A stretch of 64,000 nucleotides of DNA from a virus (taxonomy: Duplodnaviria; Heunggongvirae; Uroviricota; Caudoviricetes). Location of the stretch: positions 42,433-106,432 of IMG/VR virus record IMGVR_UViG_3300025319_000008, one strand, 5' to 3'. The position numbers and the translations under genes are program-made. Below the pieces are notes generated by a model. That model had not been told where the DNA came from, searched no databases, and worked only from the letters and a program-made list of their open reading frames with translations. The stretch's first letter is position 1. Every line of letters begins with the position of its first letter. Shown here one piece after another: positions 2,757-42,691 of the stretch.

Positions 2757-3302
2757 ATGCGAGAAATACAAATTCGAAATATATTTGTTGATATTTTCTT
2801 AACTTATTATCTAAAATTCGGATATAATATAAGTTTCGCAGCGATGCATATGTCCGGTAATAATACATTTACTGATGAGCAATCATTGAGCAAAATTTTT
2901 AATTCTATTAACAGTAAAATCCGAGCCGTTAATAAACATAACAGCAAAAATTGTTCTTTCCTTAATTTATCCGGAGTATTAAATTTACCGATTAAAGAAA
3001 TATATCCGGTTTCATTTCAATTAAAACCAGAGGAGCAATTTTGGTTTGAGTTCATCATTAATATGGAAGCCGGAAAATTCCTTGAACTTTGTGATGAAAC
3101 AAAGAATATAAGAGAACTCAGGAGATTGTATTCAATTCCAGAATCTTTCAAAGAAGAATTTTTAAGTATATTCAATAATAAAAATGCAATAGATTTAGTG
3201 AGAGCAAGATTTATCATGGGAGAAAGAATTGGAAATGAACCATCGAGAACTGGATTTTTTATTAATTATACTACCGGAGTGGCACATAGAATACATTCTT
3301 AA
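2757..3302 (+). CDS. hypothetical protein (true start may be the internal Met near 2850)
   Basis: 181-aa ORF with no motif. Confidence 0.3.
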   Translation: MREIQIRNIFVDIFLTYYLKFGYNISFAAMHMSGNNTFTDEQSLSKIFNSINSKIRAVNKHNSKNCSFLNLSGVLNLPIKEIYPVSFQLKPEEQFWFEFIINMEAGKFLELCDETKNIRELRRLYSIPESFKEEFLSIFNNKNAIDLVRARFIMGERIGNEPSRTGFFINYTTGVAHRIHS

Positions 3303-4498: not shown

Positions 4499-5857
4499 AT
4501 GAAAAAAAGCAAAAAAACAGAAGTCTGTTGTGCAGTGTGTAAAAAAGTAGAATTTGTATACTTAAGTAGGGCAAAAAAATATAACACTTGTTCTGTTGAA
4601 TGTATGGGTGAATATAATAAATCACCTAATAATGTAAAATGTTTTTCTTGTGGAAAAGAATTTCACTTACAACCAAAAAGAACAAAAAGACTTACTGATG
4701 AAAAACATATAACTTGCTCAATGAAATGTGCTGGTGAATTAAAAAAAATTATTTACCTCGGTAGGAATAATCCAAATACAAAATATATGATTGATGATAA
4801 TTTTTTTAAAAAAGTAGATACGGAACAAAAAGCGTATTTGCTTGGATGGATAGCTAGTGATGGAAATTTAGCTCCAAATGGTACAATAAATATTTCTATT
4901 CATAAAAAAGACAGGAAGTGCTTAGAGGAATTAAGAGATATAATTTGTAAAGATATTCCAATTTCTAATGGAAAAAAAAGTATGATAACGCTTAGAATTT
5001 GTTCAACTACAATGAATAATGATATTTGCTCACTTTTAAAAATAAAACCTGAAAAAAAATCAGACATAGTTGATTTTCCAAATTTAGAAAATGACGATTT
5101 AAAATGGGCATTTATAAGAGGTTTTTTTGACGGAGATGGGTGTGTATCTTTATTTACTGAAACACACGCTGCTCCTAGTTGTAATATAGCTACTAATTCA
5201 AAATTAATGCGTAAAGGAATTATTGAATTTGTTAATATACCAAATTGGACTAACGATGTAGACAAAATAGAATGGTATGGAAATAATGCTCTTGATTTTT
5301 TATCTAAAATATATGACAATAGCTCTATTAAATTACAAAGAAAGTATGAAAGATATTTAGACATTTCTGCTTGGGTTCCATCTATATCTTATAGCAGACA
5401 TTTTAAAACTGAACATTTTAAATTCTCAAAATCTATAAAAGAAGCTGTATCACCATCTAAAACAAGAGCTTCAGATTCTGGATATGATTTGGTTATACTT
5501 AAAAAGATTAAAACCATTGGAGAAGTTGAATTTTATGACACCGGAATAAAAGTTAAACCTACATTTGGATATTATTTTAATTTAGTACCAAGAAGTTCAA
5601 TAACAAAGACTGGATATATGTTAGCAAATTCAATTGGCGTTATTGATAGAACATATCACGGTAGTATAATAGTCCCTTTAATAAAAATTGATAAAAATGC
5701 ACCTGACATTCAATTGCCAGCAAAAATAGTTCAAATCATACCAACTTCCATAATTCATGTAGAGTTTAAGGAAGTTGAAGAACTTGAAGAAACACAGCGT
5801 GCAGAAGGGGGATTTGGAAGTACAGATTTGAAAAAAAATAAAAATAGTTCAATATAA
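4499..5857 (+). CDS. dut: fusion protein: N-terminal C4 zinc ribbons, a double-motif LAGLIDADG homing endonuclease module, then a complete C-terminal dUTPase
   Basis: CxxC pairs at the N-terminus; LLGWIASDGNL and FIRGFFDGDGCV (LAGLIDADG motifs ~100 aa apart); dUTPase motifs I-V in the last ~150 aa (SDSGYDL, VPRSS, GVIDRTYHGSI, AKIVQI, RAEGGFGSTD). Confidence 0.75.
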   Translation: MKKSKKTEVCCAVCKKVEFVYLSRAKKYNTCSVECMGEYNKSPNNVKCFSCGKEFHLQPKRTKRLTDEKHITCSMKCAGELKKIIYLGRNNPNTKYMIDDNFFKKVDTEQKAYLLGWIASDGNLAPNGTINISIHKKDRKCLEELRDIICKDIPISNGKKSMITLRICSTTMNNDICSLLKIKPEKKSDIVDFPNLENDDLKWAFIRGFFDGDGCVSLFTETHAAPSCNIATNSKLMRKGIIEFVNIPNWTNDVDKIEWYGNNALDFLSKIYDNSSIKLQRKYERYLDISAWVPSISYSRHFKTEHFKFSKSIKEAVSPSKTRASDSGYDLVILKKIKTIGEVEFYDTGIKVKPTFGYYFNLVPRSSITKTGYMLANSIGVIDRTYHGSIIVPLIKIDKNAPDIQLPAKIVQIIPTSIIHVEFKEVEELEETQRAEGGFGSTDLKKNKNSSI

Positions 5858-5964: not shown

Positions 5965-7995
5965 ATGCAAGACGAATTAAATAATGATGAAAATCAAGGT
6001 CCGGTAAATCCGAATGAAACATCAACTCGAAAAAAAGACAAGTCAAAAACTCCTATGTTGGATAATTTTGGCAAGGATTTGACCAAAATGGCATTAGAAG
6101 GAAAACTTGAGCCTGTAATCGGAAGAGAAAAAGAAATCGACCGGGTGATTCAGATTTTGAGTAGGAAAAAGAAGAATAACCCCGTCCTTATTGGGTTTCC
6201 CGGTGTTGGAAAAACTTGTATTGCTGAAGGTTTGGCAATGAAAATAGCTCACAAAAATGTTAGTAGGATTTTGCATGGAAAGAGAATTATTTCTCTTGAT
6301 CTTTCTTTGATTGTTGCAGGTACTAAATATCGCGGACAATTTGAAGAAAGAATGAAAACTCTCATTGAAGAAATTGAACAAAATGAAGATGTAATTGTCT
6401 TTATGGATGAATTACATACAATCATTGGAGCGGGTAATGCTGCCGGAAGTTTAGATGCTTCTAATATGATTAAGCCAGCTCTTGCTAGAGGACAAATGCA
6501 ACTCATAGGTGCCACAACAATAGACGAGTATAAAAAATCTATAGAAAAAGATGGTGCTATGGAACGTCGTTTTCAAAAAGTTATGGTTGATGAACCATCA
6601 GTAGACCAAACAAAAGAAATTATCAATCAATCTAAAGGGATGTATGAAGAATTCCATGGAGTTGTATTTGAAAATGCTGCTATTAATGCGGTTGTTGATT
6701 TGGCTGATAGATATATTACTGGACGATATTTTCCAGATAAGGCATTTGATGTGCTGGATGAAGCTGGTTCAAGAATACATATTGACAATTTAAATACTCC
6801 TCCAGAAATTATTCAAATTGAACTTGAAATCGAGGAAACAAAAACACAAAAAGATATTTTTGTTAAAACTCAACAATACGAACAAGCTGCAAAAATTAGA
6901 GATAAAGAAAAAGAATTAAGCAGAAATCTTGAGTTAAGGAAAGCGGAATGGGAAAAAACTGAAAAAAACAATCGTATTCCAGTTACAGAAGCTGATGTAG
7001 CTAAAGTTATTTCAAAAATGATTGGAGTACCAGTAACAAAATTAACTGAAGATGAAGGAGTAAAGCTTATTAATATGCCGGAAGAACTTAAAAAACGTGT
7101 TGTTGGTCAAGATAATGCGGTTGTTAAAGTAGCAGAGGCTATTCAGCGAAACAGAGCTGGACTTAATAATCCAAATAAACCAATTGCATCATTTATATTT
7201 TTAGGCTCCACCGGTGTAGGTAAAACGGAATTAGCAAAAGCTTTAGCTCAATATCTTTTTAATGATGAAGATGCTATGATTAAAATTGATATGAGTGAAT
7301 ATACAGAGCCTCATAATATAAGTAGATTGACTGGAAGTCCTCCAGGATATGTGGATAGCTCCGAAGGTGGTCAGCTCACAGAGAAGGTTCGCAACAAACC
7401 ATATTCAGTTATTTTGTTTGATGAAATCGAAAAAGCTCATCCACTTGTACATAATATTTTCCTTCAAATACTTGATGAGGGTAAACTTACAAGTGGACTC
7501 GGAATAACTGTGAACTTTAAAAATACTATAATTATTATGACTTCCAATGTTGGAACTAAAGAAATGTCTGAATATAAATCTGTTGGATTTGGTCTTGGAG
7601 AACGTAAGAGTGTTGATATTGAAGAAATTGTTAAAAAAGCTCTTAAGGGAAAATTTAAACCAGAATTTTTAAATCGCCTCGATGAGCAAGTTATTTTTAA
7701 TCTTTTAACAAAAGAAAACATAAATGAAATAACCGGTATTCATATTAATAATTTTTCAAAATTAGTAGAGAAACAAGGTTATAAACTTGAAGTTAGTAAA
7801 TCTATGAGAGAAATCATTGCAAAAGACGGTTTTAGTGAAGAATTTGGCGCAAGGCCAATTTTGAGGATGATAACAAAATATATACAGACACCGATTTCTA
7901 AGGATTTACTTTTAAAAAAATTCACAGCAGGCGACACAATATATGTTGACTGGGACAAAAAAAAAGAAGAAGTAAAAGTTACTTCTAAAAAGTAA
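5965..7995 (+). CDS. Clp/Hsp100 family ATPase with two AAA+ modules (ClpC/ClpA-like, short N-domain)
   Basis: Walker A GFPGVGKT and GSTGVGKTE; sensor and arginine-finger regions; overall ClpA/ClpC architecture; 676 aa. Confidence 0.9.
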   Translation: MQDELNNDENQGPVNPNETSTRKKDKSKTPMLDNFGKDLTKMALEGKLEPVIGREKEIDRVIQILSRKKKNNPVLIGFPGVGKTCIAEGLAMKIAHKNVSRILHGKRIISLDLSLIVAGTKYRGQFEERMKTLIEEIEQNEDVIVFMDELHTIIGAGNAAGSLDASNMIKPALARGQMQLIGATTIDEYKKSIEKDGAMERRFQKVMVDEPSVDQTKEIINQSKGMYEEFHGVVFENAAINAVVDLADRYITGRYFPDKAFDVLDEAGSRIHIDNLNTPPEIIQIELEIEETKTQKDIFVKTQQYEQAAKIRDKEKELSRNLELRKAEWEKTEKNNRIPVTEADVAKVISKMIGVPVTKLTEDEGVKLINMPEELKKRVVGQDNAVVKVAEAIQRNRAGLNNPNKPIASFIFLGSTGVGKTELAKALAQYLFNDEDAMIKIDMSEYTEPHNISRLTGSPPGYVDSSEGGQLTEKVRNKPYSVILFDEIEKAHPLVHNIFLQILDEGKLTSGLGITVNFKNTIIIMTSNVGTKEMSEYKSVGFGLGERKSVDIEEIVKKALKGKFKPEFLNRLDEQVIFNLLTKENINEITGIHINNFSKLVEKQGYKLEVSKSMREIIAKDGFSEEFGARPILRMITKYIQTPISKDLLLKKFTAGDTIYVDWDKKKEEVKVTSKK

Positions 7996-9958: not shown

Positions 9959-10885
9959 ATGAGAAAGAAATGGACAGAAAAAGAAATTGATTTTTTAATA
10001 GAAAATGTAAAAAAAATCACATTAAATGAAATAGCAGAAAAATTAGAAAAAAAAATAAGTGTAGTTAAATCTAAATTATATAAATTAGGTATATGCACTA
10101 TTAAATGGTCAAAAGATGAGGATGATTTATTACGTGAAAATTTTCCACTTAAACCAACAAGATTATTAATTGAATTATTTAAAAACAGAACTAGGAGTTC
10201 TCTTCTAAATAGAGCAACATTTTTAGGATTGAAGAGAAATAATGAAGCTAGATTTGTTTATAAAAAATATAAATACAATGTTAATCATAATTTTTTTGAT
10301 GATTTTTCACTTGAAAATTGTTATTGGGCTGGTTTTATATCAGCTGATGGATGTGTAAAACCTATTAATTCTTTATTAAGTATAAAATTAAGTAGTAAAG
10401 ATGTTGAGCATTTAGAAGTTTTTAAAAAAACAATAAATTCTAATGCTCCAATATTCATTAGAGATAACAACTCTTTTGGTACTGAACATAAATCAGCAAC
10501 TATAGACATATATTCAAAAAATATAATAAATAAATTAAAAATAAATTTTTTAATTACTAATAAAAAAACATTTACAGCAGTGCCTCCAACAATAAAAAAT
10601 TCAAATCAAAAAATAGCATTTATAATTGGGTTATTAGATGGGGATGGTTCAATATATAAAATTAATAATAATTTAAGAATAACATTTTTAGGCACATTAA
10701 AAATGCTTGAATGGATTAAAGAAACATTAAAAACAACATTATTTGTTGATGTGAATCAAAAAATACATCAAAAAGGTAAAATATATTCTTTTGCTATATC
10801 TAACAAACCAGTATTAAGTTTAATAGAGTGGGTTAAAAAAAATGAAATATATTATTTAAATAGAAAAATTGGAAAATATGTCTGA
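9959..10885 (+). CDS. freestanding LAGLIDADG homing endonuclease with an N-terminal HTH-like DNA-binding region
   Basis: YWAGFISADGCV and IGLLDGDGSI motifs ~100 aa apart; inserted between clpP and dnaJ, overlapping the dnaJ start. Confidence 0.75.
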   Translation: MRKKWTEKEIDFLIENVKKITLNEIAEKLEKKISVVKSKLYKLGICTIKWSKDEDDLLRENFPLKPTRLLIELFKNRTRSSLLNRATFLGLKRNNEARFVYKKYKYNVNHNFFDDFSLENCYWAGFISADGCVKPINSLLSIKLSSKDVEHLEVFKKTINSNAPIFIRDNNSFGTEHKSATIDIYSKNIINKLKINFLITNKKTFTAVPPTIKNSNQKIAFIIGLLDGDGSIYKINNNLRITFLGTLKMLEWIKETLKTTLFVDVNQKIHQKGKIYSFAISNKPVLSLIEWVKKNEIYYLNRKIGKYV

Positions 10886-14008: not shown

Positions 14009-14293
14009 CATATGAAAGATTACAAAGGATTAAGGTTAGAAGATTATATTGAAATTACTGGAGATTCTATTATCAATACAATCAATTCCTTTAATCTTGA
14101 TTTTGACATAAATTCTTTGCAAATAAAAGAATTAATAAAAGAAAAAGCAGAAGAAGTTTTTAGAGAAAAAAAATTAATATCTGATTTATACGATTCTATT
14201 AAAAAAAGACCAGCCTTTAAAGAAGATATTATTGATTTTTTGTATAGAGATGCAGTTAGAAAAGTTTTGGTAGAAAAATATAATCATGGATAG
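14009..14293 (+). CDS. hypothetical protein
   Basis: ORF track 13955..14293; an internal Met at 14009 removes the overlap with the previous gene. Confidence 0.35.
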   Translation, partial: HMKDYKGLRLEDYIEITGDSIINTINSFNLDFDINSLQIKELIKEKAEEVFREKKLISDLYDSIKKRPAFKEDIIDFLYRDAVRKVLVEKYNHG

Positions 14294-14693
14294 TTTACAT
14301 ATTTATCTCGATGATTTCCGGCATCCATATGACGCTTTTAATATTTTAAAAGATACTGACTATCTTAAATTGAAATGGGTTGTAGTTCGCTCTCATGATG
14401 AATTTGTTAAAACTATAACAAATTTTTTTTCAGAAGGAAAATGGCCAGCAATTATATCTTTTGATCATGATCTCGATGATGAACACTATACTATCGGAGA
14501 AAAGACTGGGTATAAAGAATTTGACTACTCCTTAACAACTATTCCTACAGGATTTCATTCAGCTCAGTGGATAATAGAATTTTGTAAAACAAACAATCTT
14601 AATCTCCCGGCATTTAAAGTGCATTCTCAAAGTACTGCAGGAAGAAAAAATATCACTGCTATTTTAGAAGAATTTTCCAATTCTAAAAAATAA
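14286..14693 (+). CDS. hypothetical protein
   Basis: 135-aa ORF with an 8-nt overlap with the previous gene. Confidence 0.4.
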   Translation: MDSLHIYLDDFRHPYDAFNILKDTDYLKLKWVVVRSHDEFVKTITNFFSEGKWPAIISFDHDLDDEHYTIGEKTGYKEFDYSLTTIPTGFHSAQWIIEFCKTNNLNLPAFKVHSQSTAGRKNITAILEEFSNSKK

Positions 14694-16404: not shown

Positions 16405-16619
16405 AAAAAGGTAAATCCTATCTATTCGAAGTTCCAGATGGTAAAAAGCTGGTAGCTCAGTTTGTTAAAACTGAAAATGGTTGTCATGTTTTAAAATTTA
16501 GTAAGTGCGATTGGAAGTTTTATTCCAACCGAACAAAGAAAATATCCACATCAAGATTTGAATCTGGTGTTGCTTGTTTTGAAGGGACTGACCATTTGAT
16601 ATTGAAAGAAATAAAATGA
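16401..16619 (+). CDS. hypothetical protein
   Basis: 72-aa ORF with ATGA overlaps on both sides. Confidence 0.35.
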   Translation: MKKGKSYLFEVPDGKKLVAQFVKTENGCHVLKFSKCDWKFYSNRTKKISTSRFESGVACFEGTDHLILKEIK

Positions 16620-17398
16620 TAGAAGATGTAAAATATAATTCCGAAGGGAAGTTATCTGTTAATCAAACTCTATTTGGAGACTGCCTTGAGGTTATGAAAT
16701 TAATTCAGGACAAATCCATAGATTTTATTTTTGCAGACCTTCCCTTCGGTTGAGAAACTACTCAATGTCCATGGGATTCCATAATTGACATTCCTAAATT
16801 ATGGGAACAATATGAACGTATTATTAAAGATAATGGTTGTATTGCTTTATTTGCTCAGACACCATTTGATAAAGTTCTTGGTGCCAGCAACCTGCCTTTA
16901 TTGAGATATGAATGGATTTGGGAAAAAACACATGCAACTGGGCATTATAATGCAAAGAAGATGTGTATGAAATCGCATGAAAACATTTTGATATACTATA
17001 AGAATCTTCCTACATATAATCCACAAAAAACAACCGGGCATAAACCTGTAAATTCATTTACCAAGAAAATTGATATTGGAAACAAGACAAGAGTTTATGG
17101 TAAAGGAAATAAAGAAATTGTTGGTGGAGGAAACACCGACAGATATCCAAGAAGTGTATTGAAATTTTCTTCTGATAAACAAAAAAATAAAAACACAGAA
17201 TTTATTCATGATACCCAAAAACCATTGGAGTTGTGTAAGTATTTCATTAAGACATATACCAATGAAGGTGATTTAGTTTTGGACAATTGTTCCGGCAGTG
17301 GCACAACCGGTTTAGCAAGCAAAGAGCTAAAAAGGAATTGGATAATGATTGAAAATGATGAGAAATTTTATGAAATGAGCAAAAGGAGGACTATCTAA
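16616..17398 (+). pseudogene. N-4/N-6 DNA methyltransferase (ParB-associated type) interrupted by one in-frame TGA at 16751-16753
   Basis: N-terminal part MIEDVKY...SIDFIFADLPFG (motif IV, DPPY-like) runs into TGA; the same frame continues as ETTQCPWDSII...EWIWEKT...TQKPLEL...VLDNCSGSGTT (C-terminal N4/N6 MTase motifs). Confidence 0.7.
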
Positions 17399-18491: not shown

Positions 18492-19646
18492 ATGTCAAAA
18501 AAATTAACAACAGAAGAGTTTATTGAAAGAGCTAAAATTATACATGTAAACAGAATAACTAATGAATCAAAATATGATTACAGTTTAGTTGAATATAAAA
18601 ATAGCAAAACTAAGATTAAAATAATTTGTAAAGAACATGGTGTTTTTGAGCAAACGCCAAATGATCATTTATCTGGTTGTGGATGTGTTGAATGTTCTGG
18701 ACTCAAAAAATTAACAACCGAAGAATTTATTGAAAAGTCTAACAAAGTTCATAGTAATATATATGATTATTCATTAGTAGAATATTTTAACAATAATACA
18801 AAAGTTAAAATAATATGTAATAATCATGGAGTTTTTGAACAAATTCCAGCAAGTCATTTGGGTGGGCATGGATGTGGTAAGTGTGGCGGAACCGCATTAA
18901 GAAACACGATAGAGTTTATTGAAAAATCTATAATTATTTATGGATATACATATAATTATGAGTTAGTTGAATATGTTAATTCTATAATTAAAGTTAAGAT
19001 AATTTGTAAGAAACATGGTGTTTTTGAGCAATCACCAGATAAACATTTAGCTGGACACCAATGTCCTTTTTGCGGATTTGAAGAAAGTTCCTTAAAAAGA
19101 GCTAATACTTCTGAATATTTTATTGAAAAATCGAAAATTATACACATAAATGAAAAAACATGTGAACCAAAATACGATTATTCAAAAGTTAACTACGTTC
19201 AAAACAAAACTAAGGTAATAGTAATTTGTCCATTACATGGAGATTTTCAAATAACTCCAAGCTCACATTTGAATGGATATGGATGTAAAAAATGTAATTT
19301 TTCAAAAATATCAAAGGGAGAAAAAGGTATAATTGAATTTTTAAAAAAGAATAACATCGAATTTATACATCAACATAAATTTAATGATTGCATAGGAATA
19401 TCAAATAAATTACCATTTGATTTTTATTTACCAAAATACAATACTTGTATAGAATTTGATGGGAGACAGCATTTTGAATCAGTCAAAAAATTTGGAGGAG
19501 AAAAAAATTTTTTGGATATACAAAGAACTGATAACATAAAAAATAAATATTGTTTAAATAACAATATAAAACTTATTAGAATTTCATATTTAAATTTGAA
19601 AAATATAAATGAAATTTTAGAGAAAGAATTCAACTGTATTGAGTAA
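18492..19646 (+). CDS. zinc-ribbon repeat protein with a C-terminal PD-(D/E)XK (Vsr/DUF559-like) endonuclease domain
   Basis: Five ~60-aa repeats of KYDYSLVEY...K.KIICK.HGVFEQ.P..HL.G.GC..C; C-terminal LPFDFYLPKYNTCIEFDGRQHF; paralog at 34194..35321. Confidence 0.65.
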   Translation: MSKKLTTEEFIERAKIIHVNRITNESKYDYSLVEYKNSKTKIKIICKEHGVFEQTPNDHLSGCGCVECSGLKKLTTEEFIEKSNKVHSNIYDYSLVEYFNNNTKVKIICNNHGVFEQIPASHLGGHGCGKCGGTALRNTIEFIEKSIIIYGYTYNYELVEYVNSIIKVKIICKKHGVFEQSPDKHLAGHQCPFCGFEESSLKRANTSEYFIEKSKIIHINEKTCEPKYDYSKVNYVQNKTKVIVICPLHGDFQITPSSHLNGYGCKKCNFSKISKGEKGIIEFLKKNNIEFIHQHKFNDCIGISNKLPFDFYLPKYNTCIEFDGRQHFESVKKFGGEKNFLDIQRTDNIKNKYCLNNNIKLIRISYLNLKNINEILEKEFNCIE

Positions 19647-24320: not shown

Positions 24321-26378
24321 ATGGTAATGAAACAACATTCATTTTTGGTAGATATCGGCAAAACTATGGTCGATACAAATAAAATAAGCTCAGAAGGAAA
24401 AGACAGTCAAAGAATGTACTGCCATTGCGGTAATAAAAAAGAGCTAAAAAGTAAAGCGAGAAGATTGCTTGTAAAAAAACACGACACTACTGTTGAAGAC
24501 AAGCATAGTATTGAAACAATTAAATGTGATAAGTGCGGAAGCGTTTATGACAGTAAAAATCGTTTATTTCTTATTATTCCAGATGAAGATGAAATTTATA
24601 AAGTTTCATTTTTAGTAGAAGAAAAAGGAAAAACAATAACTCTTTTAAGACAAAAAACATTTGTTAGATACGATTCTTCTACTGATAAATTAAATGATAA
24701 TATTGTCAGAACCGATTCAATTAAATTTGATAGAAGCAAAAACAAAACTGAAATTTTCTTAGAAAAGCCATTACTTGATAAAATATCAGTAAATAATAAG
24801 CAGAATGATGTGAATAACATTACGGAAGAAGTAGGTCTTTCAAAAATAGGAAGATTAGAACATTTTTTCCAATTTTATGATTTTGCTTCTTATGGTGGTC
24901 TTATAAATATATTCAATTTTTTTAACAAAATTGATGTTGTAGTAACTGACCTTGACGATATTAAGAAATTGATTCCTCAAATAAGTTATGCTTATAATAA
25001 TCATGATGTTTTTGAAAAAACAGATGAAATAACCGGAGAGTCAATAACTTATAATAAAGTTGATAGCGGTTTTGGAGACGGAAAAAAAGAAGAGAAAAAA
25101 TTAAATATAGGTGGGTATTTATCCAGATATGTTGAATTGTCTAAAATTTTTCTTTGTGTATCTGACTTCCAGAGTATTTCAACAATATTACTTACTAAAG
25201 GACAAGTGTTTTTTAAAGAATTTATCCACAGTAAAAACATTTTATCTTCTCAAGTTTATGAATTGTTTGAAGCAACATCTCCTACTAAAATATTGGAAAT
25301 TTCTATGAATTGCGATATTAACGGTATGTTAAAAGGAAGTGGAGATAATGATACTAAGGAAGTTGCTAAAAAAGTCGTTAAAATATCAAAAACCATAGAA
25401 GATAGTCCTAACTATTTAAAGGTTAGTCCTTTGATTTATAAACACATAAGCACTCCACAGGATATGGAAATTTTGCTTAGTATATATCGTAAAAAATATA
25501 TTTCCAAAACTGATATTGAAACTTTGTTTCAAAGTTATGATACTGAGCGTATTTATAAATTCTACAGAAATTTAGAAAAACAAAGAATTCAAGATAATGC
25601 CAGTTTTACAATCAAAAACATTAAACACATCTTAGATAGAAATATAGATGATGTTGTAAAAGGTGGCAATTCTGATTATTTGCATTTGTATACAGATACT
25701 ATTAACTCAATGAGGCTGTTGGAGCTTTCTGATAATTATATTTATCGTATTAAAAGTAATGTCGAGTTAAAAACTATACATGATGACCTTGCAGCGAGAT
25801 ATGGAGCTATTAAAGATGCTAAAAAAGCAGAATTTTATAAAAAAGCAGCTAAGGAATTGTCAAACATAAATACAATTGTTGGCGATGTTGAATTGACAGT
25901 TATTCCAACTCTTGAGGACTTAAATAAAGAAGGTATGCTTATGAATCATTGTATTTATACATACCTTGATCGAATTGTTAATAGAGATTATATGGCTGTC
26001 CATGTACAACATATAATTTCAAATGAAAGAGCAACTTTGGGTTTATATCGTAAAAATGGAGGCCTTGAATTTGATCAGTTAAAAGGTTATCGTAACTCAA
26101 GAGCCTCAAGAGAGTTAATTGAAGGAGTACTGGAGTTTATACAAATTAACAAAATACAATCTTCTTCCAGAAACAGTGATTTAACACCTTCTGCCGGAAG
26201 CATAACCAGAATGCATGATTATTTAAGTGACGAAGAAGTCATGAAAATAAGAAAAGAAAGAGAAAAAAAGGAAAATATTGAGATGGAAAAAGCAAAATCA
26301 GAAGGAAAAGAGTATGTTCCTAAGTATTCAAAGTCACATCAAAAAAATAAAAAAGGATTTTTTGGATTATTTGCTTAA
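24321..26378 (+). CDS. large protein with N-terminal zinc ribbons and a C-terminal domain resembling PcfJ-like proteins
   Basis: CHCG...CDKCGS; C-terminal EGMLMNHCIYTYLDRIVNRDYMAVHV...LGLYRKNGGLEF; the PcfJ assignment is from memory of the family and is low confidence. Confidence 0.4.
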   Translation: MVMKQHSFLVDIGKTMVDTNKISSEGKDSQRMYCHCGNKKELKSKARRLLVKKHDTTVEDKHSIETIKCDKCGSVYDSKNRLFLIIPDEDEIYKVSFLVEEKGKTITLLRQKTFVRYDSSTDKLNDNIVRTDSIKFDRSKNKTEIFLEKPLLDKISVNNKQNDVNNITEEVGLSKIGRLEHFFQFYDFASYGGLINIFNFFNKIDVVVTDLDDIKKLIPQISYAYNNHDVFEKTDEITGESITYNKVDSGFGDGKKEEKKLNIGGYLSRYVELSKIFLCVSDFQSISTILLTKGQVFFKEFIHSKNILSSQVYELFEATSPTKILEISMNCDINGMLKGSGDNDTKEVAKKVVKISKTIEDSPNYLKVSPLIYKHISTPQDMEILLSIYRKKYISKTDIETLFQSYDTERIYKFYRNLEKQRIQDNASFTIKNIKHILDRNIDDVVKGGNSDYLHLYTDTINSMRLLELSDNYIYRIKSNVELKTIHDDLAARYGAIKDAKKAEFYKKAAKELSNINTIVGDVELTVIPTLEDLNKEGMLMNHCIYTYLDRIVNRDYMAVHVQHIISNERATLGLYRKNGGLEFDQLKGYRNSRASRELIEGVLEFIQINKIQSSSRNSDLTPSAGSITRMHDYLSDEEVMKIRKEREKKENIEMEKAKSEGKEYVPKYSKSHQKNKKGFFGLFA

Positions 26379-31553: not shown

Positions 31554-33959
31554 TTATTCTTTCTTTTTGAATTTAGTGAATTTTTTCTTCTTCGGTGAAT
31601 TTTTAGATTCTTTAATAATTTCTTCACAATCTTTTAAAGTTAAAGTATCAGCTTCTTTTCCTAGAGGAATTTTATGGTTGCCTGTCTTAGATTTTATGTA
31701 CGCTCCGAATTTACCATTAAGTACGCTTATGCCTTCTTTTTTAAATTCTTTAATGGTATTACTACTCTTTGCTGCACTTTTCTCTTCAAAGATTTCTATT
31801 GCACGTTTTAAAGATATTGTGGAAGGGTCTTCTTCTTTAGAAATTGAACTGTAGATTTGACCGACTTTGACGTATGGGCCGAAGCGTCCTATTGCAATTG
31901 AAACGTCTTCACCTTTATGTTTACCCATATTTCTTGGCCATATAAGAAGTTCTAATGCCTCTTCTATAGTGATGTTTTCTATTGTTTGTCCTTCTTTTAA
32001 TTTGGCGAATTTTGGCTTTTCTTCATCACTTTTTTTGTCAACACTCTCTCCCATTTGTATCATTGGTCCGAATTTACCTAAACGAGCGTAGATTATTTTG
32101 CCTGTTTTTGGGTCTTTGCCAATTTCTCTTATTCCGGCTTTTCCTTCTTCGCCTGCAGCTTCTTTTAATGTCTTGCTGAATGGTTCATAAAACTCTCCAA
32201 TCATCTGTTGCCACTCTTTATTTCCTTCTGCTATCTCATCAAGTTTTTCTTCAGTCTCTGCAGTAAATTTATAATCCATGATGTCCGGGAAATGTTTTTT
32301 TAGATAGTCAACTACCACTCCGGCAACTTCTGTTGGAACTAATTTTCCTTTTTCTCCTCCAAATTTATCTATTACTTCACTTTCTTCTATTTTATTGTTT
32401 GTTGATGATAGAGTTAATGTTTGGATTTTACGTTCCTTTGGTTCAATATCTTTTTTTTCAACGTATCCACGGTCTTGGATTGTTTGGATTATCGTAGCGT
32501 AGGTTGATGGCCTGCCAATTTGAAGCTCCTCCATGGATTTAACAAGTCCAGGTTCATTAAATCTTGGTACTGGTTTTGAAAATGATTGTGATGAAACTAA
32601 TTCTTTATAATAAAGTTTATCACCTTTTTCTAAAGGTGGAAGGATTTTAGAATCACTATCTTCATTTTCATTATCTTCTTTATTATCATCTGTGTCGTTG
32701 TATACTTTTAAAAACCCATCAAATTTTATAATTGTCCCTTTAGTTACAAATTGTTCTTTTATGTTTTGTGTGCCAATAGTAATTTTTGTAAGTTCTGTAA
32801 CTGCATCACTCATTTGTGAAGCCAAAGCTCTTTTATATATTAAATCATAAAGTCTAACTTCATCAGAAGAGCCAGATATTGTTTCTTGTTCGAAATGAGA
32901 ACAACGGATTCCTTCATGAGCTTCCTGACTTCCTTTGTTTTTGTTCTTATATTGCTTGTTGCATAAATATTTATCTCCGTATTTTGATTTTATTTGTGTG
33001 GAAATCTCTTTAATAGAATCTTCTGAAAGCATTACAGAATCAGTTCTGTGATAAGAAATAAACCCCTTGGAAAAAAGCGATTGAGCAGTATCCATACATC
33101 TTTTAACGCTAAATCCTAATTTATTTCCAGCAGTTTGTTGTAATGTACTTGTTGTAAATGGTGCTGAAGCTGTACGTTTTCCAATTTTTGTTTCTTTATT
33201 GTTAACTATAAATTCTTTTCCAATACATTCATTTAAAAATTTATGTGCAGTTTGCTTATCTTTAAATCTTTTATCTAAAATAGATTTTATTGAAACTCTT
33301 TTTTTTGTTTCAAAAGCTCCAGTAGTTTTAAAATCTACATCCGATTCAAAAGATTTTATTTCCCTTTCTTTTTCAACTATCAGTCTAACGGAGCTACTTT
33401 GCACCCTTCCAGCACTTAAATTAGGGGCTACTTTTTTCCAGAGCAACCCACTTAAATCAAACCCTACAATTCTATCCAAAACACGTCTTGCTTGTTGAGA
33501 ATTAGTTAAATTTTTATCAATTATTCCAGGATTATCTATTGCGTTTTTTACTGCTGTTTTTGTTATCTCATTAAATACAGCACGTTTAGTTGTTTCTAAT
33601 GGAAGGTCTAAAGTTATAGCCACTGAATGAGCTATAAATGAGCCTTCTCGGTCTAAGTCAGAAGCAAGAATAAATTCGTATCCATTTTTCTTAAATTCTT
33701 TTAATGTTTTAACAACATCTTTCTTGCTTTCAGATACAATGTAATGTGGTTCAAAATTATTTTTTTTATCCACTCCTTTTGCACCTTTATCTAATTCCAA
33801 GATATGTCCCACCGAAGCTATACAATCATAATTATGATATCCTATTTCTTTTAATATCTCTTTTATCTTTTTTATTTTTGATGGAGACTCTACCACCATA
33901 ACGTATTTCTGATTATCGGAACCTATTTTTTTCTTTGCCATTTTACAAATGTAATACAT
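31554..33959 (-). CDS. topA: DNA topoisomerase I (type IA)
   Basis: N-terminal TOPRIM VMVVESPSKIKKI; the catalytic region has the family-typical Tyr segment; 801 aa; alternative start at 33941 (MAKKK). Confidence 0.9.
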   Translation of the reverse strand: MYYICKMAKKKIGSDNQKYVMVVESPSKIKKIKEILKEIGYHNYDCIASVGHILELDKGAKGVDKKNNFEPHYIVSESKKDVVKTLKEFKKNGYEFILASDLDREGSFIAHSVAITLDLPLETTKRAVFNEITKTAVKNAIDNPGIIDKNLTNSQQARRVLDRIVGFDLSGLLWKKVAPNLSAGRVQSSSVRLIVEKEREIKSFESDVDFKTTGAFETKKRVSIKSILDKRFKDKQTAHKFLNECIGKEFIVNNKETKIGKRTASAPFTTSTLQQTAGNKLGFSVKRCMDTAQSLFSKGFISYHRTDSVMLSEDSIKEISTQIKSKYGDKYLCNKQYKNKNKGSQEAHEGIRCSHFEQETISGSSDEVRLYDLIYKRALASQMSDAVTELTKITIGTQNIKEQFVTKGTIIKFDGFLKVYNDTDDNKEDNENEDSDSKILPPLEKGDKLYYKELVSSQSFSKPVPRFNEPGLVKSMEELQIGRPSTYATIIQTIQDRGYVEKKDIEPKERKIQTLTLSSTNNKIEESEVIDKFGGEKGKLVPTEVAGVVVDYLKKHFPDIMDYKFTAETEEKLDEIAEGNKEWQQMIGEFYEPFSKTLKEAAGEEGKAGIREIGKDPKTGKIIYARLGKFGPMIQMGESVDKKSDEEKPKFAKLKEGQTIENITIEEALELLIWPRNMGKHKGEDVSIAIGRFGPYVKVGQIYSSISKEEDPSTISLKRAIEIFEEKSAAKSSNTIKEFKKEGISVLNGKFGAYIKSKTGNHKIPLGKEADTLTLKDCEEIIKESKNSPKKKKFTKFKKKE

Positions 33960-41370: not shown

Positions 41371-42312
41371 TTAATCACTCTTTTTACTAACAAGTTCTAA
41401 ATCGTTTTCATGGTGCCATACTTGGCAATTTCTTTTATCTGACTTCTCTCCATAAACCAAGTACCCTTCGCCTTGCTTCCAATATTCCACTTTGTTTACT
41501 ATATAAGTTTCCTTACCAACATTCTTCGCTCCGTCTTTATTGTGTTCTGTTTCAGAAAATGCATCATTTATTGAAATCACTGTATCTCCAACACTAAAAC
41601 GGCATGAAACATTACTTTTTAACTCATCAATTTGTCTTTTTAATTCTCTAATAACCTGTGCAACAGCATAATCGTTAACCCATTTTGGGTCTTCTATGAA
41701 TGTTAATATAACAGACTCGCATCTATTTAAATCATACAACATGCCTCCGGCTGGTTGTTTAACAAATTCTTTTAATGGCATTGCTTGAATACCATCAAAT
41801 GTTGCTGTTACTATGTTTCCATTTTTGTATTCTGATAATACTAAATCTTTAATGTTCTCAGCCGGAACACGTCCGTCAAAAACAACTATCATACTATCTT
41901 TTGTCCCACTTTGTGTTTTTCCTTTTGAATTTAATGGTAAATAGAATTTTCCAGTTTCATCTATTTTGCCGAACTTAATTCTTCCTTTTATAAATTCAAT
42001 TTTGGTTGCATTTGGTTTAATGTATTCTTGGAATAATTTCGTTGAAGTTGAAACAGGGAGCAGGAAAACACAAACTTTGCCTTTTTTCATTTCTTCGATT
42101 CCTTTTTTAATAAATTTCTCTTTTAATTTTTGACTATAAGGAGGATTAATGAAGTTTGAATTACCCCATTCAATTTTTAATCCATCAACTGTAATTTCGT
42201 TTTCACTGTAAGGACATGGATCAAAATCAAAATTAAATCTACTGTTTAACTCTTCGTAAAACTCTGGTGGAGTAGCATAATTATCATCATTGTTTATGTG
42301 TATCTTTTTCAT
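41371..42312 (-). CDS. phage-type DNA N6-adenine methyltransferase (Dam-like) with a C-terminal extension
   Basis: YATPPEFYEELNSRFNFDFDPCP and NFINPPYSQ are signatures of the phage Dam family. Confidence 0.75.
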   Translation of the reverse strand: MKKIHINNDDNYATPPEFYEELNSRFNFDFDPCPYSENEITVDGLKIEWGNSNFINPPYSQKLKEKFIKKGIEEMKKGKVCVFLLPVSTSTKLFQEYIKPNATKIEFIKGRIKFGKIDETGKFYLPLNSKGKTQSGTKDSMIVVFDGRVPAENIKDLVLSEYKNGNIVTATFDGIQAMPLKEFVKQPAGGMLYDLNRCESVILTFIEDPKWVNDYAVAQVIRELKRQIDELKSNVSCRFSVGDTVISINDAFSETEHNKDGAKNVGKETYIVNKVEYWKQGEGYLVYGEKSDKRNCQVWHHENDLELVSKKSD

Positions 42313-42337: not shown

Positions 42338-42691
42338 TTAATTTACCCCAAACAAACTAGCCAAATCAAACATGCTGTATTTTTTACTTCTTTGTTGGAA
42401 CACGAATTTCACAATTCTTTTTTGTGAATTAGTTAAGTCTGAAAATTTGCTTCCACCTTTATCATTTTCTAAATCCTGGCATCTCCATTTATAGTTTGCT
42501 GACATTTTCTTAAAATGAATAGCAACATTTCCAACTTCTACTTTTTGATGGAAATCTAAACTATTCCACCAAATATCCACTTTACGTTTTTTAGTCTTAA
42601 GTGCTGGATATTGGTCATAATTTTTACCTTTACCCTTATTTAGTTTGTGCAAAGCTAATATTGCTGCTGGAAGCACTGATATATTTGTCAT
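42338..42691 (-). CDS. hypothetical protein
   Basis: 117-aa ORF. Confidence 0.4.
   Translation of the reverse strand: MTNISVLPAAILALHKLNKGKGKNYDQYPALKTKKRKVDIWWNSLDFHQKVEVGNVAIHFKKMSANYKWRCQDLENDKGGSKFSDLTNSQKRIVKFVFQQRSKKYSMFDLASLFGVN

Follow-up and report, generated by a model that had tools for sequence, protein, structure and literature searches.

Stop-first inserts at motif IV of phage beta-class DNA methyltransferases suggest short ribosome hops over a stop codon

In bacteriophage T4 gene 60, translation crosses a coding gap of 50 nucleotides (nt), where a Gly take-off codon is followed by a stop codon and the landing codon matches the take-off codon (PMC5462505, PMC6551183, 10.1101/2022.08.31.505936). 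Synthetic "stop-hops" were engineered in Escherichia coli (Weiss, Dunn, Atkins and Gesteland, 1987); they were of low efficiency and needed a slowly decoded codon in the A site (reviewed in PMC5009743). In their review, Atkins et al. (2016) knew of no natural hopping over an in-frame stop, and gene 60-like cases of smaller size, with matched take-off and landing codons, had been suspected for a long time (PMC5009743). After that review, a MobA element was described as the carrier of gene 60 homologs. For the terminase of Streptomyces phage phiHau3 bypass of 10-nt inserts was proposed, with a regulatory rationale (PMC10732093), and in the mitochondria of Magnusiomyces capitatus many short non-coding inserts are skipped by ribosomes (cited in PMC5009743 and PMC10732093). 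Here, a DNA methyltransferase gene with an in-frame TGA is analyzed. It lies in a stretch of 64,000 nt of the virus record IMGVR_UViG_3300025319_000008 (positions 42,433 to 106,432; the whole stretch is called the window), and it belongs to a large family of similarly interrupted genes which may well be translated by short ribosome hops. A full-text literature search, with most subscription journals outside its scope, returned no case of bypassing, hopping or programmed frameshifting in any DNA methyltransferase.

The start codon of the methyltransferase gene, ATG 16616, is part of an ATGA (16616-16619) that also holds the TGA stop of the preceding gene, which encodes a protein of 72 amino acids (aa). 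The frame reads MIEDVKYNSEGKLSVNQTLFGDCLEVMKLIQDKSIDFIFADLPFG, meets TGA at 16751-16753 and resumes behind it as ETTQCPWDS…DNCSGSGTT… until it closes at TAA 17396-17398 (Table 1). The joined product matches Pfam PF01555 (N6_N4_Mtase) with an E value of 7e-27 and aligns with CcrM, MboIIA and RsrI. Its ADLPFG lies opposite ADPPY of CcrM and represents the DPPY-like motif IV, which is placed at the N-terminus, with motif I (DNCSGSGTT) at the C-terminus. The NCBIfam CcrM and PRK11524 scores of the joined product stayed below their cut-offs. Based on these matches and its motif order, the gene is a beta-class N6-adenine/N4-cytosine DNA methyltransferase. A methyltransferase with a single in-frame TGA had been recognized in a sequence-only reading, and both the identity of the gene and the TGA were borne out.

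To see which residue the TGA replaces, the junction was aligned with intact homologs. Six annotated phage homologs with 54-63% identity (those of Tenacibaculum phage Larrie and Cellulophaga phi17:2 among them) read DLPYG-TT(Q/K/R)(C/N)KWDS where the window reads DLPFG-stop-E-TTQCPWDS, and 65 IMG/VR homologs likewise have no counterpart of the two extra codons TGA GAA. The closest relatives in a collection of 5.8 billion proteins, P0001 (92% over the C-terminal 213 aa), P0003 (85%) and P0005 (82%), are all intact and read DLPFGTT(Q/K)C(P/A)WDS. At the DNA level, the window junction is GAC CTT CCC TTC GGT TGA GAA ACT ACT; that of P0001, from a contig that is syntenic with the window (the 72-aa gene lies upstream there too) at 82% DNA identity, is GAT TTG CCT TTC GGA ACG ACT, and that of P0005 is GAC CTC CCA TTT GGA ACA ACC. 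Because the homologs are without TGA GAA at both the protein and the DNA level, the window was counted as having six extra bases, which can be placed behind GGT as TGAGAA or, with equal right, be written GG[TTGAGA]A. From these alignments it is concluded that the TGA replaces no residue and heads a 6-nt insert directly after the motif IV Gly codon; the nonsense substitution assumed in the sequence-only reading does not describe the junction.

Two of the 80 best IMG/VR relatives of the window (2.5%) were found to be broken directly after the Gly codon as well, and the interrupted share is apparently far higher in one clade. The junctions of these two are GGT TAA GGA ACT (L058) and GGT TGATT GGT ACA (L041), the latter with 8 extra nt that change the frame. 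A degenerate DNA pattern (D-x4-D-L-P-[YF]-G, 1-14 free nt, T-T-x3-W-D) in which only the flanks are fixed yielded 54 loci in IMG/VR, 10 in GTDB genomes and at least 118 in JGI metagenomes. After de-duplication at least 154 contexts remained, with at least 140 true family members. All counts of insert classes given here rest on the matches listed in these three scans and are not phylogenetically independent; kinship was handled where possible by counting distinct insert sequences or by comparing matched relatives.

Among 140 contexts, 127 (the window and 126 others) carry an insert that begins with a stop codon, compared to a chance expectation of 5%. All three stops are used (TGA in 57, TAG in 35 and TAA in 35), and of the 13 inserts that are not stop-first, most add 3 or 6 nt of sense sequence. 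Stop-first inserts are 4-12 nt long and represent all three frames; examples are TAGC, TAGGA, TGAGGA, TAACGGA, TAACTGGA, TAGTTTGGA, TAACTTAGGT, TGAATAATGGA and TAAAAAAATGGA, and canonical sites include GGC TGA GGA, GGT TAGC and GGC TAACTTAGGT. Since two thirds of the inserts change the frame, readthrough alone cannot rescue most members. One member (L151, insert TAGT) comes from the genome of a cultured Lachnospiraceae isolate. On several contigs (L115/L176, L157 and L261) two tandem methyltransferase paralogs are both interrupted, for example by TAACTTAGGC twice or by TAACGGA and TAACTGGA.

The position of the inserts is restricted. In IMG/VR, 47 stop-first loci were identified at the junction between Gly and Thr. 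The junction between Pro and Tyr, which had been intended as a control, revealed a second insert site instead, with 10 loci whose inserts are all 6 nt long and all stop-first. These ten methyltransferases (L270-L279) read GAC CTN CCT, then TGACTA, TAACTA, TAGCTT or TGACCT, then TAY GGA, and their landing triplets are CTA, CTT or CCT, mostly with a mismatched middle base (CTA, CTT). At the control junctions between Asp and Leu and between Thr and Thr no stop-first insert was found in IMG/VR; the former gave two matches, a 1-nt frameshift and a false parse, and the latter one sense variant. Gaps of 15-44 nt after Gly gave a single match in IMG/VR, a plain tandem duplication of 22 nt. Ordinary disruptive indels are therefore rare here, and stop-first inserts are common only after the Gly or Pro codon of motif IV. 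The split methyltransferases of Salmonella phages SP4/SEP1 and of E. coli phage C1 were considered as further candidates; because they are broken in the middle of the gene and not at motif IV, they were read as ordinary frameshifts.

The inserts end in a recurrent way. In the 112 inserts of at least 5 nt, the window included, the last three bases are GGN in 101, AGN in 6, TGN in 3 and GAN in 2, with GGA as the commonest landing codon. When distinct insert sequences are counted, the AGN and TGN endings are AGC and TGC, which match GGC at two of three positions. Inserts of 4 nt, fifteen in number, have AGC or AGT as their last bases. Among 56 distinct insert sequences, the GG of the landing triplet is the earliest GG behind the take-off codon in 44 of 44 types. 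The spacer between the stop and the landing triplet is nearly free of G, with 2 G in 123 nt compared to a background of 24% (p 1.5e-12). Removal of the insert restores the consensus DLPYG-TT exactly.

Downstream of the stop, the genes are well preserved. The downstream open reading frame (ORF) has its full length of 203-247 codons in 95 of the 101 loci whose contig reaches the end of the gene. Between interrupted genes, the ratio of nonsynonymous to synonymous substitution rates (dN/dS, Nei-Gojobori) of the post-stop part is 0.05-0.26 (L097/L119, 0.087; L199/L097, 0.053) at dS values of 0.6 to >2, dS being saturated in many of the compared pairs. Insert types persist: TGAGGA is kept across 14 genes with a median identity of 52% and TAGC across 9 genes with a minimum identity of 43%. 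Full-length ORFs, low dN/dS and persistent insert types together indicate that, where a lineage carries the stop, the sequence behind it is translated and selected. The types TGAGGA, TGAGGC and TGATTGGG interleave on the tree, as if the length of the insert drifted while the stop-first architecture stayed.

Interrupted and intact genes also differ upstream of the junction, and only at synonymous positions. Counted back from the junction, the Pro codon at -9 to -7 is CCC in 78% of the interrupted and 15% of the intact genes listed, a difference that holds when only close relatives are compared (42/55 interrupted, 4/45 or 9% intact). The take-off Gly codon is GGY in 91% and 42%, respectively, and the Leu codon at -12 to -10 is TTA in 2/129 interrupted (2%) and 38/118 intact genes (32%). 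Synonymous differences are limited to -10, -7 and -1 (no TTA, CCC, GGY), with none downstream, the GC content around the site is equal (0.41) in both groups, and the nascent peptide encoded there, DLP[YF]G, is invariant. Pro-site inserts have a C at -7 too (GAC in 10/10), these ten genes being closely related to each other. The window shares the signature (GAC CTT CCC TTC GGT), while its intact relatives use CCT or CCA and GGA at the signature positions. In the window CCC accounts for 13 of 553 Pro codons (2.4%), GAC and TTC have shares of 20% and 18%, and the joint probability of GAC, CCC and TTC from window codon usage is 8.7e-4.

A mini-hairpin pairing CCC with GGG, or Leu-Pro with the Gly-stop codons, was considered as an explanation of the signature and dropped because the pairing A at -10 is avoided and a GGG take-off codon is rare. 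The class consensus from -9 to -2 (CCCTACGG) is the reverse complement of what we take to be positions 1509-1516 of E. coli 16S rRNA (CCGUAGGG, the 5' strand of helix 45). This was the sole complementarity noticed for the CCC/TAC preference, and it is probably a coincidence. When ORFs within 3 kb were clustered for 137 interrupted and 119 intact loci, many of them on short contigs, no neighbour family specific to interrupted genes was found.

The insert, its position, the class architecture, the conserved downstream ORF and the synonymous signature are direct observations. Stop, endings and spacers match the layout of translational bypassing, with forward scanning by the anticodon of the peptidyl-tRNA, and we infer a hop, its efficiency and its purpose as follows. 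With the stop codon slowly decoded in the A site, peptidyl-tRNA-Gly would sit on the take-off codon, GGT in the window. The tRNA would release this codon, the ribosome would slide a few bases across the G-poor spacer, and the tRNA would re-pair at the first suitable triplet, normally GGN, so that translation restarts at the codons for Thr-Thr and yields an uninterrupted DLP[YF]G-TT, probably in small or condition-dependent amounts. Ribosomes that terminate would release just a peptide of 45 aa. In the window, the hop product would read …ADLPFG-TTQCPWDSIIDIPK, by a poorly pairing hop from GGU to GAA. Peptidyl-Gly and peptidyl-Pro are among the slowest substrates of release factors, which would fit take-off solely after Gly and Pro codons. 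We favour, at somewhat better than even confidence, the reading that the family represents natural, widespread and maintained short ribosome hops over a stop in phage and prophage beta-class methyltransferases, with the TGAGAA of the window as a member with a degenerate landing codon. The same modest degree of confidence applies to the particulars of the hop, i.e., take-off at the motif IV Gly (Pro in one clade), gaps of 4-12 nt, landing on the first GG and an upstream nucleotide signal of the family's own (C at -7, GGY take-off). The sequence-only reading had listed local recoding among its options; that direction appears right, while the readthrough or late-gene reassignment it named is less well supported than a short ribosome hop.

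Several observations weigh against this reading. The scan pattern demands conserved flanks and thereby favours well-kept genes. Local folding of 115 interrupted and 107 intact junctions showed no difference (mean z -0.68 and -0.74), and the junctions revealed neither a conserved hairpin nor another of the known stimulators of bypassing; in the window, a hairpin GUUGAG/CUCAAU was not significant (z -0.99). Sense inserts of one or two codons occur at the junction in some homologs (GTA, CAA, AACGGR, GGTGGG), so the loop tolerates extra residues. Inserts of 3n+1 and 3n+2 nt might also be decoded by a +1 or -1 frameshift that adds a few residues; this would leave the GGN endings and the G-free spacers unexplained and would need three mechanisms instead of one. 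For the window copy in particular, the landing triplet GAA matches the take-off GGT at the first base alone, and the only similar case among the 127 contexts listed, L189 (GGT TGAGAT ACA), belongs to a distant clade. As the nearest relatives (92, 85 and 82%) are intact, the insert is either young or was lost by them. Since all copies found are identical, selection on TGAGAA or its persistence is not measurable.

Of the described systems, the synthetic stop-hops come closest in mechanism, followed by T4 gene 60. Like T4 gene 60, the class combines a Gly take-off codon and an adjacent stop with a landing that matches the take-off, would resume translation at the codon behind the landing triplet, would make one polypeptide from two ORFs, and lies in a conserved region of a phage gene of DNA metabolism. 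Unlike gene 60, the gap is 4-12 nt instead of 50 nt (20 nt in one gene 60 clade), there is no conserved take-off stem-loop, no neighbouring homing endonuclease of the MobA type was found, and the upstream signal is the synonymous CCC/GGY signature, which has no gene 60 counterpart; in the window, moreover, the landing triplet mismatches the take-off codon. The layout of the 6-nt inserts (GGY TGA GGN), and formally that of the window site, is the layout of the synthetic stop-hops, but the class sites are natural and conserved and include out-of-frame gaps of 4, 5, 7, 8, 10 and 11 nt. As in phiHau3, short inserts in a conserved phage gene are proposed to be hopped over; there, however, a rare sense codon, UUA, linked with the host bldA tRNA acts as trigger, and few genes and no large family are concerned. 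Take-off and landing pairs are often imperfect in Magnusiomyces capitatus, as in the window, whereas the class is bacterial or phage-borne, has gaps of 4-12 nt and keeps to one fixed junction, or two, in a single protein family. The elements of Magnusiomyces capitatus are 27-55 nt long, resemble GC clusters, are mobile and occur in many genes.

Two further comparisons concern decoding of the stop itself. With the +1 frameshift of prfB (RF2; CUU UGA C) the class would share a P-site tRNA that re-pairs while a stop waits in the A site, and the 4-nt members (GGT TAG C) are formally possible +1 shifts. Unlike prfB, no upstream Shine-Dalgarno stimulator is present, the in-frame insert of the window would not be rescued by a single-base shift, and a GGN landing triplet up to 12 nt away is no feature of +1 frameshifting. 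Stop reassignment in large phages (code 4 or 15, suppressor tRNAs) is likewise associated with an in-frame stop in a conserved gene, here on an apparently very large phage-like contig (503 kb). In contrast to such cases, TGA is functional in the window, a single gene is affected, no suppressor tRNA was found in the window, and the class holds frame-changing inserts which are beyond repair by reassignment.

The window copy shares the exact junction, the leading stop, the GGT take-off codon and the CCC signature with the class. Because its landing triplet GAA does not match the take-off codon, it was classified as an atypical member; GAA lies one base from GGA, and the Pro-site landings show that imperfect landing triplets occur. 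With four outgroups, 5 aa changes in the post-stop part fall on the window branch and 9 on the branch of intact P0001. The N-terminal 30 residues of the window methyltransferase are unusually diverged (9 changes), and neither a second lesion nor an excess of downstream aa changes was found in this gene. Taken together, the chances that the window copy hops productively, probably with low efficiency, seem evenly balanced.

The alternative that survives best is a recent loss of function, either by insertion of 6 bp (GG[TTGAGA]A) or by mutation of G to A in the landing codon at a site formerly of the TGAGGA type, with the downstream ORF still intact for lack of time. The sequence-only reading had named a recent pseudogene among its options, and for the window copy this is possible, given the atypical landing and the intact nearest relatives (P0001 and P0005 have GGA ACN). 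It would also agree with the single-base distance between GAA and GGA, the commonest landing codon among the matches listed, with the identity of all 24 contigs, which gives no sign of long persistence, and with the occurrence of decay in the class: in L228 (CAACTTAGGA) the stop is lost within a 10-nt insert. A random insertion, on the other hand, would have had to hit the exact junction, start with a stop and adjoin both GGT and CCC, the rarest Pro codon of the genome (joint probability <1e-3), a combination that the closest relatives do not have. The absence of a second lesion and the low number of downstream changes relative to the sister branch also weigh against decay. The GAN landing has an independent second occurrence in L189, and the Pro-site inserts land mostly on triplets with a mismatched middle base. 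A recently disabled window copy is therefore considered a minority possibility, though one to be taken seriously.

L228 itself is probably dead. In L130 and L191 the sense insert AACGGR resembles TAACGGR minus its T and would yield two extra residues (N-G). These three loci possibly represent evolutionary exits from the interrupted state.

That the UGA is decoded as an amino acid, by near-cognate readthrough, by a suppressor tRNA or by a code-4-like reassignment encoded elsewhere on the contig of ~503 kb, would give G-W/C/R-E-TT. In favour of this, TGAGAA keeps the frame, the sense inserts of some homologs suggest a loop that may accommodate additional residues, and the tRNA examination covered 64 kb of the 503-kb contig. 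Against this, the window follows the standard code: it is ~94% coding with 101 ORFs that end in TAA (76), TGA (19) and TAG (6), and many of the TGA stops, including the one at the start of the methyltransferase gene itself, sit in ATGA overlaps. Genome-wide recoding was rejected for the window on the basis of ORF statistics under four codes, stop usage and these overlaps, in agreement with the sequence-only reading, which had held code 4 to be unlikely. Other genes with an in-frame TGA were sought within the 64 kb, as had been proposed, and only the methyltransferase is interrupted; among the other long ORFs of the window, none begins with an extended leader free of start codons as a hint of a second interruption. 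The suppressor tRNA that had been proposed as a check was not found: ARAGORN identified no tRNA in the window, and no Rfam family matched there. Selenocysteine insertion was rejected because homologs are without a residue at the position of the UGA, no Rfam match was obtained and no significant structure is present. For the class, readthrough fails because two thirds of the inserts shift the frame and all three stops are used, and it leaves the GGN landing and the G-free spacers unexplained. A window product with two extra residues (G-X-E-TT) is accordingly regarded as improbable. In a large phage, one in-frame stop on its own should not be taken as a sign that the code has changed.

A split gene, in which an N-terminal peptide of 45 aa and a C-terminal part of 213 aa are made by termination and re-initiation and then assemble, is very improbable. 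In some members with TAT GGT TAGC, TAT-GGT contains an ATG that is in frame with the downstream part, and many inserts hold Shine-Dalgarno-like AGGA or GAGG. The junction of most members (TAC GGY …) is devoid of a start codon, however, and in the window none is available for re-initiation there, the earliest in-frame start of the downstream ORF being TTG 16901, 49 codons in; re-initiation is unlikely for this reason, and splitting would cut the catalytic loop between DLPYG and TT. A sequencing or assembly error, which the sequence-only reading had listed and for which nothing speaks beyond the general error-proneness of metagenome assemblies, can practically be dismissed: the 783-nt gene with TGAGAA is present with zero differences in four independent assemblies from different samples (NCBI GCA_902731165.1, JGI 3300025159, ENA ERZ27254818 and Logan SRR3972141), and the class occurs in well over a hundred contigs of unrelated projects and in the cultured isolate genome.

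The NCBI copy lies on the contig CACVIJ010000001.1 (503,412 bp, 28% GC), and the upstream 72-aa protein is recorded in 39 blocks of public assemblies, the four assemblies named above being those with DNA. No near-identical phage matching window positions 1-25000 was found in GenBank, and no structural phage genes were identified among the window ORFs tested; the contig may belong to a huge phage or to a giant mobile element of another kind. The features of the interrupted gene and other genes of the window are listed in Table 1.

Table 1. Coordinates of the interrupted methyltransferase gene and of other genes in the 64,000-nt window.
Feature	Position	Strand	Description
ORF1	16616..16750	+	45 codons, from Met to the motif IV Gly (…SIDFIFADLPFG)
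Upstream synonymous signature and take-off codon	16736..16750	+	GAC CTT CCC TTC GGT; CCC 16742-16744, take-off GGT 16748-16750
6-nt insert TGA GAA	16751..16756	+	In-frame stop 16751-16753, would-be landing triplet GAA 16754-16756
ORF2	16757..17398	+	213 codons and TAA; Thr-Thr (ACT ACT), then target-recognition region, then motif I (DNCSGSGTT)
Repeat protein	18492-19646	+	384 aa; four tandem repeats of ~65 aa (…YDYSLVEY…KIIC..HG.F.Q.P..HL.G.GC..C)
phrog_4645 "endonuclease" domain, first paralog	4499-5857	+	
phrog_4645 "endonuclease" domain, second paralog	9959-10885	+	
Second DNA methyltransferase	41371-42312	-	phrog_111; uninterrupted
Lon-like protease	5965-7995		
cREC_REC domain protein	14286-14693		
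PcfJ-like protein	24321-26378		
Type IA topoisomerase	31554-33959		

The repeat protein, encoded 1.1 kb downstream of the methyltransferase, matches the Pfam DUF4379 treble-clef zinc finger and is labelled DUF723 in public annotation. Its C-terminal segment (FDFYLP…IEFDGRQHF) presumably resembles nucleases of the Vsr/DUF559 type, and the gene is possibly homing-endonuclease-like. Of the two paralogous phrog_4645 domains one is fused to a dUTPase and the other has a D5-like/HNH-like N-terminus. Among the relatives, the intact P0005 methyltransferase lies between a T4-type portal gene and a polymerase, a context unlike that of the window. In a phage with intact P0005 (L411, Logan SRR33270653), the neighbouring genes for terminase and DNA polymerase III alpha carry intein/LAGLIDADG domains. 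A subgroup of homologs (L027, L033, L034, L044 and L065) has an insertion of ~40 aa after WDSxxPLND, and in L029 (IMG/VR 3300037343_000433, about 2815-3000) an in-frame stop lies inside the ~40-aa insertion (…NKTWN, stop, THQKGLW…).

Natural cases of bypassing are few, namely the T4 gene 60 family, the proposed phiHau3 case and one yeast mitochondrion. If the hop reading is true, a large natural set of "stop-hops", expected since 1987 but not found, would come to light for the first time in the interrupted methyltransferases. Their more than 100 natural variants in gap length, stop, take-off/landing pair and spacer would serve like a mutagenesis series from which to learn how take-off, scanning and landing are governed. 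In the four public assemblies, gene callers split the window methyltransferase into 45 aa and 136-145 aa; as such genes are split or would be flagged as pseudogenes, the methyltransferase repertoires of phages are under-counted. The purpose of the interruption is plausibly to throttle or condition expression of the methyltransferase: a leaky stop in the catalytic motif could keep the amount of a potentially promiscuous enzyme small or make it depend on the translational state of the host.

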